A DNA stretch of 64,000 nucleotides from an uncultured Spirochaetota bacterium. GTDB taxonomy: Bacteria; Spirochaetota; Spirochaetia; SZUA-6; Fen-1364. Positions 56,685 through 58,947 of this stretch are shown piece by piece (the stretch's first letter is position 1; every line of letters begins with the position of its first letter). The notes under the pieces were generated by a model. The model was not told the origin of the DNA, did no database searches, and saw only the letters and a program-made list of their open reading frames with translations. The translations under genes were made by a program, and so were the position numbers. The stretch lies in the NCBI GenBank assembly GCA_963820525.1, contig CAWGAA010000001.1, positions 1,024,001-1,088,000 on the forward strand. The letters run 5' to 3'.

Positions 56685-57512
56685 CTATCGTATGAACCCT
56701 GCGATGTTAATCCGGAAAATCTTTCCAAACCTGTTGCTGGGGCCATAGAGAAAATCACTGTTCTGAGCAGTCTTTCCGAACCGAAGCATATCGATATAGG
56801 GATTCTTCTTTTCTCCAGTTTCCATCAGAATTTTCTCTTTTGCGTGTTTCGATAATAAATAGAATGATTCGTATTCAGGACCCTTTATGACAATGGTATC
56901 GCCTCGAATCTCGACGTATTCAGGGCAGTATTCAGCATCGCGGAAAACTGCTGTTAACTCTCCCCTGGTACCGTCTTTCTTCAGCGTGCACCGGATCAAC
57001 TGGCCGTTATTATTCTCACAAAAATAGAGGTTTTGATAACCCGCATCAAATCTCATACCGATGATATTTTCAATTCCTTTGCCTGTTTCTTTTTCGCCAT
57101 CGATAAAAACCGATTTCTTCAAATCCGGCGTATATCTGAATATTTGACTGCCGCTTGATACGAACATGTTCCCTTTATCGTCGAAGACAATACCGCAGGC
57201 CCCATAGTTGCCAGGAAATGCTTCCGGTCCGAAGATCAAATCGAAAATATAGAGGTTGGCCGTTTCCGGTGTTCCGAGCTCTTCAACCACTGCGAATTGG
57301 CTTGCCTTGCCGTCCTGCGTTATTTTAAGCACGGAAAAACCGGATTTGATGACATACATGTTGCCTTGCTCATCCATCACGATCCCATGAAGGGAACCCT
57401 CTAATTCGGCAAAAACTTCTGCTTTGACAGTAGTTTCAGCGTACGCCGCGAGAGATACTACAAACATCAAGAGAAGCTCTAAAACAAAGCTTTTTTTAAA
57501 CAACCTGTTCAT
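56685..57512 (-). CDS. AT-rich secreted beta-propeller protein (SMP-30/gluconolactonase-like)
   Basis: SD GGAGG, signal peptide, repeated GIVxDxxGNxYV blades. Confidence 0.65.
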   Translation of the reverse strand: MNRLFKKSFVLELLLMFVVSLAAYAETTVKAEVFAELEGSLHGIVMDEQGNMYVIKSGFSVLKITQDGKASQFAVVEELGTPETANLYIFDLIFGPEAFPGNYGACGIVFDDKGNMFVSSGSQIFRYTPDLKKSVFIDGEKETGKGIENIIGMRFDAGYQNLYFCENNNGQLIRCTLKKDGTRGELTAVFRDAEYCPEYVEIRGDTIVIKGPEYESFYLLSKHAKEKILMETGEKKNPYIDMLRFGKTAQNSDFLYGPSNRFGKIFRINIAGFIR

Positions 57513-57615
57513 AACAACCTCCACAATAAAAAGTTTCTCTCTGAAAACTTCTGCCAGGTGCAGCCTGTCGCACGGCAGTCGTTGCATTATTCGAAACTGC
57601 CGGCTTGTTTTCACC

Positions 57616-57644
57616 TTGACGCGCGCGCGGAGGCGTGCTAAACT
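57616..57644 (+). promoter_or_regulatory. sigma70 promoter of metK
   Basis: TTGACG-N17-TAAACT with an extended -10 TG. Confidence 0.75.
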
Positions 57645-57661
57645 CTTTTTTGGACCGGTGG

Positions 57662-57717
57662 TCCCGTGGATCGATTTGCGGTGTATTGCAACCACGAAAA
57701 AAAAAGCTAAAAAACCA
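57662..57717 (+). ncRNA. SAM-II-like riboswitch aptamer
   Basis: TCCCGTGG..GATTTG....TTGCA.CCACG...GCTAAA: P1 CGTGG/CCACG with SAM-II hallmark motifs, located in the metK 5' UTR. Confidence 0.65.
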
Positions 57718-57785
57718 GGAACAAATCCCTTTCGGATTCCCACCTGAGTTTTTTAAGCCCTGCACCTCTAAAGGAGGTTTCACCC

Positions 57786-58947
57786 TTGACTTCAAGAGAC
57801 GAGTTTGTATTCACGTCAGAAAGCGTCGGTGAGGGGCACCCGGATAAAATCTGCGACCAGATATCCGATGCCGTGCTGGACGAGGCGCTGCGCCAGGACA
57901 AGAACTCTCGCGTTGCCTGCGAGGCTTTCACCACGACGGGGCTGGTCCTCGTGGGCGGAGAGATCACGACTTCCGGCTACATAGACCTGCAGCAGGTTGT
58001 GCGCGGAGTCTTGAAATCCATCGGCTACGACGATCCGTCCTACGGCATCGACTACCAATCCTGCTCCGTGATATCCACAATCCAGAAGCAGTCTCCCGAC
58101 ATCGCCCAGGGGGTGAACGGAACCGGCCTGCACCACGAGATGGGCGCGGGAGACCAGGGCATGATGTTCGGCTACGCCTGCGACGAGACGCCCAGCCTGA
58201 TGCCGGCGCCCATCACCCTGGCGCACCAGATCATGCTCACGGCATCCCGGGTGAGGAAGAGCGGCGAGCTTACCTTCCTCAGGCCTGACGGCAAATGCCA
58301 GGTTTCCGTGAAGTACGTGAAGGGAAAGCCCCAGCGGGTGACAACCGTGGTGCTCTCCCACCAGCACTCGGAGGAAGTGAGCTACAAGGAGCTGCAGCAG
58401 GCGCTGATAGAAGAGGTCATAAAGAAGGCCATCCCCGCCGAGCTTCTGGACTCGCAGACCATCTACCACATCAATCCCACGGGAAGGTTCGTGATCGGCG
58501 GGCCCCACGGGGACACGGGGCTCACCGGGCGGAAGATCATCGTGGACACCTACGGCGGAATGGCGCGCCACGGCGGCGGCGCCTTCTCCGGCAAGGACCC
58601 GACAAAGGTGGACCGCTCCGCCTCCTACATGGCGCGCTACATTGCCAAGAACATCGTGGCGGCGGGCCTCTGCTCCAAGTGCGAGGTGCAGATCGCCTAC
58701 GCCATCGGCATCGCCAAACCGGTTTCTTTCTACGTCTCCACGTTCCAGACGGGAAAGGTCGCCCGACGAGAAGATCGAGAAGGCCGTGGAAGAGGTGTTC
58801 GACCTGACTCCCCGGGGAATCATCGACACCCTTGACCTTCTGAGGCCGATCTTCCGCGAGACCGCCTCATACGGCCATTTCGGCCGGGACGGGTTCAGCT
58901 GGGAGAAGACGGATAAGGTGGAAGCCATCAAGGCGAAGCTCCGCTGA
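57786..58947 (+). CDS. metK: S-adenosylmethionine synthetase, frameshifted near 58761-58764
   Basis: [25 protein letters not shown]; the C-terminal FDLTPRGII...YGHFGR...WEKTD lies in another frame. Confidence 0.93.

Follow-up and report, generated by a model that had tools for sequence, protein, structure and literature searches.

SAM-II riboswitches have mostly been described as transcriptional devices. In the parts of the literature available to us, terminators lie between P2 and the open reading frame in many representatives (PMC1273637), the class is most often linked to terminators, with no explicit prediction of structures hiding the ribosome binding site (RBS; PMC2258182), and metX is presented as "a rare translational SAM-II" among mostly transcriptional elements (PMC6061858). 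SAM-II and SAM-V have also been filed under direct occlusion (PMC10907184), a view shared by the earlier note on this DNA, which held that SAM-II usually sequesters an adjacent Shine-Dalgarno sequence (SD) and regarded a distant expression platform as unusual. Because most SAM-II elements are described as transcriptional, a distant platform is in fact the usual arrangement, and the premise of the note does not fit these accounts. PMC9373788, the available part of which calls SAM-II output little studied, shows SAM-II acting by another mechanism, "translation at a distance", on a start codon 74 nt distant. The long-loop family, RF01726, was described from Bacteroidetes and marine samples (PMC2864571, available part).

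Here we analysed the leader of a metK gene within a window of 64,000 nt, the whole stretch of DNA under study. Its elements are the following.

57616-57644, + strand: sigma-70-like promoter TTGACG-17-TAAACT, TG-extended (consensus score 9/12)
57652-57664, + strand: P0, a predicted 5′ hairpin GGACC/GGTCC adjoining P1 (MFE fold)
57665-57716, + strand: putative SAM-II aptamer, an H-type pseudoknot (RF01726 and RF00521 matches, pairing in 20 leaders)
57665-57669 / 57692-57696, + strand: P1 stem CGTGG/CCACG (from the sequence)
57670-57679, + strand: L1 (from the aptamer layout)
57673-57677, + strand: GATTT motif (from the sequence)
57680-57689 and 57706-57716 (GCTAAAAAACC), + strand: P2 strands (from the aptamer layout)
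57686-57690, + strand: TTGCA motif (from the sequence)
57697-57705, + strand: A9, assigned to loop L3 of the pseudoknot (A-run of the Rfam consensus)
57706-57758, + strand: predicted competing (anti-aptamer) helix, 57706-57719 with 57743-57758 (MFE fold, family comparison)
57764-57778, + strand: predicted SD-sequestering hairpin ACCTCT/GGAGGT, with ACCTC at 57764-57768 and GAGGT at 57774-57778 (fold models)
57772-57778, + strand: SD AGGAGGT (from the sequence)
57786-58947, + strand: metK (SAM synthetase), TTG start at 57786 (TIGR01034, 533 bits; cut-off 309.4)

P1, GATTT, TTGCA, A9, the GCTAAA strand, the ACCTC/GAGGT hairpin and the TTG start all lie where the earlier note had placed them. The SD sits 7 nt 5′ of the TTG start and 56 nt downstream of the aptamer. 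A TTGAC in a comparable position precedes metK in all 15 same-family leaders with upstream DNA (a 16th ends at a contig end) and, since the sigma-70-like site ends at 57644, transcription probably starts near G57652. In the 20-leader alignment described below, 89.5% of the P0 cells are paired and one P0 pair shows a two-sided change in 6 sequences, with a covariation signal not above the shuffle control. In each of the two modelled states a small hairpin, CTTG-ACTT-CAAG at 57785-57796, masks the start codon. Upstream of the promoter lies a divergent ORF of lower GC content (56685-57509, - strand) with no NCBIfam match; the gene at this place differs in many relatives, and positions 57568-57582 are replaced by 71 other letters in three sequencing runs.

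When a 701-nt segment was scanned against all Rfam families, RF01726 matched at 57660-57720 with 42.8 bits (E 8.9e-7; curated cut-off 44) and RF00521 with 22.6 bits (cut-off 36). The covariance-model check that had been proposed for this leader thus found the element, at scores below both cut-offs. The RF01726 match is the only one across the genome (E 1.5e-6), and its 5.05 Mb hold a single occurrence of a loose SAM-II core pattern, so that the element lies beyond chance; no SAM-I match was found in the genome. The Rfam model is matched over its full length, and the pocket nucleotides GAUUU, UUGC and GCUAAA, identical to the Rfam consensus, are invariant or nearly so in the 20-leader alignment. 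We take the P2 register, in which the UUGC-bearing strand pairs with the GCUAAA strand, to be that of PDB 2QWY. As in the SAM-II elements of RF01726 and RF00521, P1, GAUUUG, UUGCAA, an A-rich loop and GCUAAA follow one another in this order, a promoter lies a few bases 5′ of P1, and the element stands upstream of a SAM/methionine gene, here between the promoter and metK; what differs is the Spirochaetia host, the extra P0 hairpin and the absence of a strong terminator before the gene. MetK records 80-87% identical to this one are titled Spirochaetia, Spirochaetaceae or Spirochaetota, so the spirochete assignment holds and, together with the RF01726 and TIGR01034 matches, upholds the earlier reading of a SAM-II-type element ahead of metK in a spirochete. 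By each sequence test but a 1.2-bit shortfall to the Rfam cut-off, the leader is a canonical SAM-II aptamer. It very probably binds SAM and regulates metK, and predicted feedback repression of metK is the best explanation of its role. The riboswitch class is thus a known one; only the predicted relay of the signal to the ribosome looks family-specific in our models.

The pure A9 run had been read as standing where the strand pairing with GTATTG should be, and a structural variant of the aptamer, a decayed aptamer or a miscalled A-rich tract had been offered as explanations. The partner of GTATTG is GCTAAAAAACC, which is intact; A9 lies elsewhere, at the place where the RF01726 consensus also has an A-run. 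L3 is 9 nt long in this genome, as in most relatives, and among 123 leaders (distinct pattern matches with sufficient downstream DNA) its longest A-run measures 6-10 in 117 and 9 or more in 5. A contig of run X1 (57488-57803), which may be the source sample, bridges A9 without any difference, and a contig of X2, from another strain, bridges it unchanged; those of X3 and X4 cover it without difference, with a left flank of 22 letters only. Two points favour one or other of these explanations, namely the score of 42.8 bits, below the 44-bit cut-off, and the fact that among the 21 family-type leaders only this genome has a pure A9. Against them stand the reproduction of A9 in four runs, which refutes a miscall, the standard loop length, the invariant core described below, and the pure A-runs found immediately 5′ of GCTAAAA in leaders L081, L117 and L138; we consider decay, structural variation and miscalling, taken together, most improbable. 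A9 is, as far as the sequence tells, an ordinary A-rich loop L3, which by analogy would pack on P1. Indeed, in the SAM-V segment matching L3, conserved adenines face the P1 minor groove, in close superposition with SAM-II (PMC6061858, available part), and the P1-L3 interaction is named in the available part of PMC5352136.

The element is conserved in the family. RF01726 matched with E ≤ 0.05 in 22 of 40 relatives (9 above the cut-off), 18 of them among the 24 same-family genomes; the family-wide search including this genome gave 19 matches in 25, of which 8 were above the cut-off, at the same place. The match adjoins the orthologous metK in 18 of the 18 same-family genomes that have its 5′ end assembled; it is this conservation in relatives whose absence the earlier note had named as refuting. 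The six misses are explained by assemblies without this 5′ end, with no metK match (four), a paralog-level match only (one) or the 3′ part only (one). We aligned 20 leaders (this genome, the 18 family genomes and a look-alike, L105); with L174 they make up the 21 family-type leaders, which as relatives are non-independent samples. The P1 (5/5) and P2b (4/4) pairs are invariant in 20 of 20, and the P2a G-C pairs are kept in 19-20 of 20. Aptamer covariation was not above shuffles in this alignment (42-489 of 500) because the aptamer strand is fixed, so the covariation suggested as a check did not appear, and the paired positions are invariant instead. Outside the family, 3 of 13 metK leaders carry a SAM-II motif. 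The G039 match (31 bits) was dropped for want of the P1 pattern, and the G174 locus gave no Rfam match at E 0.001. The L105 record (596-748, - strand) is titled uncultured Bacteroidetes and has a family-type leader ahead of a MetK 81% identical to that of the window; possibly the contig has been mislabelled or misbinned, or the locus was transferred.

Between the aptamer and the SD lies a feature absent from the earlier note. In the MFE fold, a helix between 57706-57719 and 57743-57758 takes up the 3′ P2 strand, and in this prediction the competing helix and P2 are mutually exclusive. The helix is laid out as CCTG, one bulged base, G, T6 and AAGC, and encloses a small hairpin (57724-57738). 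All 21 family-type leaders have it, at -16.1 to -23.4 kcal/mol (-17.8 here); 94% of its cells are paired in the family alignment, and in the 20 leaders the CCTG and TTT columns never vary, next to a spacer that does. As the aptamer strand is fixed, no two-sided change occurs in it within the family. At the end of L3, a GTG is absent in four leaders, in three of which the matching CAC is absent too; this GTG/CAC extension is lost in our genome, and one strain is missing a base at 57748, within the helix. In the wider set, 43 of the 123 leaders form every pair of the 4+1+3 bulged core, against 75 of 2460 shuffles (3%). By listing, these 43 comprise 19 family-type, 3 other Spirochaetales, 20 Gemmatimonadota-type and 1 Tectomicrobia leaders. 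At pair 3 there are 22 A-U and 21 G-C, and at pair 6 there are 17 A-U, 4 G-U and 22 G-C, counts that are partly circular, the rows having been selected for pairing. The predicted competing helix is the real lineage-specific feature of this leader; when metagenomes were scanned with a pattern of the family platform, 1 locus came out.

The terminator-type Spirochaetales (L141, L152, L165) and Gemmatimonadota share with the family the 4+1+3 bulged helix that joins the aptamer 3′ end to a downstream strand and in which A-U and G-C replace each other at two positions. In the three Spirochaetales and most Gemmatimonadota-type rows this strand belongs to the 5′ arm of a strong terminator, so that the helix is the antiterminator of those lineages, whereas in the family it continues as a U-run pairing with the aptamer A6 and leads into the SD hairpin. 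By this analogy, the relay of the family plausibly derives from the antiterminator of its terminator-type relatives.

Does the family itself use a terminator? In a classical SAM-OFF arrangement, SAM binding would free a hairpin before T6. A T6 run does lie between aptamer and gene, and SAM-II is most often linked to terminators in the available part of PMC2258182. With P2 withheld, however, the hairpin left before the U-run reaches only 0.0 to -5.8 kcal/mol in family leaders, with 4-6 U in 8 nt, compared with -8.9 to -12.2 kcal/mol and 7-8 U in four terminator-type Spirochaetia controls. In this genome, once P2 is formed, 3 bp (AGG/CCT) and the inner hairpin remain, a remnant of -5.0 kcal/mol lying 3 nt before the U-run, so that SAM binding would remove part of the stem instead of freeing it. 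The terminator scan of the + strand listed nothing between aptamer and gene. In these models we see neither the strong hairpin and U-tail that SAM would free in a terminator-type SAM-II nor any matching SAM-induced terminator in this family, and we regard the SAM-OFF terminator as highly improbable.

The reverse logic can also be considered: the hairpin and T6 (57715-57754) would act as an intrinsic terminator or strong pause without SAM, weakened when the SAM-bound P2a holds CC 57715-57716, so that SAM would raise read-through, adding an inverted or incoherent layer of transcriptional control to a translational repression. The unbound-state hairpin indeed amounts to -8.7 kcal/mol directly 5′ of GTTTTTTA here and to -9.1 in L047, and an incoherent dual control has been reported for S. 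meliloti SAM-II (PMC9373788, available part). But this hairpin is not conserved as a terminator (-0.3 in L043), and the U-runs are shortened to 3-4 in L039, L042 and L044, where the aptamer pairing past the U-run is still kept. It is not among the hairpins listed by the terminator scan either, and a SAM-ON logic would make little sense for a SAM synthetase. We judge this second terminator improbable.

The two translational precedents also differ from what we find. The metX SAM-II (PDB 2QWY, direct SD occlusion) has the same pseudoknot core and a short P2a of 2-3 bp. The 3′ P2a strand is CC here (ACC 57714-57716), not the GG of an SD, and the SD, 56 nt past the aptamer, would be reachable only via strand exchange; the SD is thus not part of P2a, as it is in direct-occlusion SAM-II of the metX type or SAM-V. 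The Sinorhizobium meliloti metA SAM-II, in the available part of PMC9373788, likewise acts on a start codon some 70 nt distant, a hairpin and a U-run lying between. In that RNA the riboswitch itself contains the functional SD, and the terminator does not depend on SAM, whereas here a full SD precedes the start by 7 nt and the strand in between would compete with the aptamer.

We favour a translational relay. In most family members the 3′ end of the competing strand is also the 5′ arm of the hairpin that hides the SD, and this hairpin is kept with differing sequences (AGACACA/TGTGTCT in L037, GGCACGACCT/AGGTTGTGTC in L043). In 17 of 20 leaders, withholding the aptamer strands raises the cost of opening the RBS by more than 0.5 kcal/mol. 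If P1 is retained in both states, the coupling averages 3.27 kcal/mol over the 21 leaders, against 0.11 in linker shuffles, a control that abolishes both downstream elements together; it exceeds the shuffle mean in 20 of 21, and at most 1 of 30 shuffles is as high in 16 of 21. Three leaders entered these models with manually assigned start codons, and a locus that lacked a start codon was left out. The same RBS coupling is -2.0 to +0.6 kcal/mol in the four terminator-type leaders, and 1.7 and 4.4 kcal/mol in two leaders from other families that lack a terminator. In family leaders it takes 12.5-19.9 kcal/mol to free the aptamer, far more than the modelled P2 duplex yields (-2.4 to -4.2 kcal/mol, triples and ligand not counted), and any such switch must for this reason be kinetic.

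The choice would then be made during transcription. At low SAM, strand 57743-57758 would pair at the free AGG toehold 57717-57719, zip through GCTAAAAAACC and destroy P2; in most family members this would also take away the 5′ arm of the SD hairpin, leaving translation ON. At high SAM, the pseudoknot would be locked before the competing strand emerges, perhaps aided by a pause at T6, and the freed 3′ end of that strand would close the hairpin over SD and start codon, turning translation OFF, possibly followed by Rho-dependent termination. Strand-exchange relays to an SD hairpin are common in other riboswitch classes. For SAM-II we found no description of such a platform in the literature searched, and the available parts of PMC3326309 and PMC12667848 contain nothing on one. 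On the strength of the models, a translational OFF relay is likely the mechanism of the family. The best explanation overall, a canonical SAM-II aptamer with a cotranscriptional strand-exchange relay to the SD hairpin giving metK feedback, we consider somewhat likely.

The output in this very genome is more uncertain, because the predicted coupling is only 0.3 kcal/mol. The overlap between competing strand and SD hairpin has shrunk here to TTAAG/CTTGA across the start codon, either modelled state needs about 6.3 kcal/mol to open the SD hairpin, and the coupling (0.2-0.3 kcal/mol) is equalled by 6 of 30 shuffles. Other weakly coupled leaders are L049 (-0.5) and L039, L045 and L047 (<1 kcal/mol). 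These figures, together with the lost GTG/CAC extension and the deletion at 57748 in one strain, would suit an aptamer that binds SAM in front of a largely decayed relay, a constitutive SD hairpin tuning basal translation and SAM acting weakly or via RNA stability or Rho; SAM-II effects on mRNA stability have been shown (PMC9373788, available part). However, the competing helix is fully kept here, at -17.8 kcal/mol, and the closest-looking leader, L174, which has the same TTTTTTAAGC, shows a coupling of 6.4 kcal/mol. Moreover, the duplex between GGTGTA 57680-57685 in the P1 loop and the anti-SD TGCACC 57761-57766 is the strongest of the 21 leaders (-8.7 kcal/mol) and would offer a pseudoknot route beyond nested folding. 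We consider the decayed relay unlikely. Since the other 20 leaders reach only -1.8 to -7.9 kcal/mol, this contact is not a family feature. When forced in a nested fold, which cannot score a pseudoknot, it gave -37.5 instead of -42.7 kcal/mol, with P1 broken. Within the translational relay that we favour, the switch range may be small in this genome, or the extra GGTGTA/TGCACC contact may be used; as to a substantial translational switch here, the models leave us leaning slightly against it.

Tentatively, and a little short of thinking it probable, we propose on the same models that one uncultured Spirochaetia family has turned a transcriptional SAM-II translational. The bulged antiterminator helix, still in use in other Spirochaetales and Gemmatimonadota, would have been kept and the terminator 3′ arm lost, with the U-run strand invading the aptamer A6 and its end wired to the SD hairpin; this genome may use the further P1 loop/anti-SD pseudoknot. 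If true, a strand-exchange translational SAM-II platform has been caught beside its terminator-type relatives. Leaders that share aptamer and competing helix and end in either a terminator or an SD hairpin would make up a natural series, suited to studying how a platform changes mode.

The earlier note was right about the spirochete host; the rarity that it attached to this lineage did not survive, the same aptamer occurring in many other phyla. One exact SAM-II pattern was found in at least 119 stretches of GTDB genomes, with Gemmatimonadota, Fermentibacteria, Tectomicrobia, Nitrospirae, Ignavibacteria, Omnitrophota, Spirochaetia and others among the matches listed, many of them near the Rfam cut-off. 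In an Rfam test of 12 pattern loci, 7 were SAM-II at E ≤ 0.001, and 4 of these were above a cut-off. In 150 other genomes of the phylum none exceeded the RF01726 cut-off and four gave weak matches (26-30 bits); with about 33 candidates scored per genome, sensitivity was limited, and this reads as not found in those searched. We found no report of SAM-II in Gemmatimonadota or Nitrospirae, and none of a spirochete SAM-II in the available parts of the literature that mentions both SAM-II and spirochetes, outside Figure 5 and Table 1 of PMC5473149. On the pattern matches, the spread of SAM-II goes well past Proteobacteria and Bacteroidetes, the groups that the literature available to us names.

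The SAM-II aptamers L055-L173 (Gemmatimonadota, Fermentibacteria, Tectomicrobia, Nitrospirae and others), not all of which precede metK, have lineage-specific platforms. The Fermentibacteria leaders carry a CCTC strand complementary to the aptamer GAGG, followed by a terminator; several Entotheonella leaders have no terminator, and L038 and L050, metK leaders of other-family Spirochaetia, combine the aptamer with a third platform type, with no clear terminator.

Finally, metK shows an apparent frameshift near 58761, beyond which the second frame matches the C-terminus of a relative's 386-aa protein. As the contigs of X1, X3 and X4 have one letter fewer at this place, the frameshift is most likely an assembly error. 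A second metK-like gene (G000:C1:2897013-2897966, - strand), 58% identical and apparently within an operon, has no SAM-II core in the 330 nt upstream. Similar second copies are present in several family genomes.
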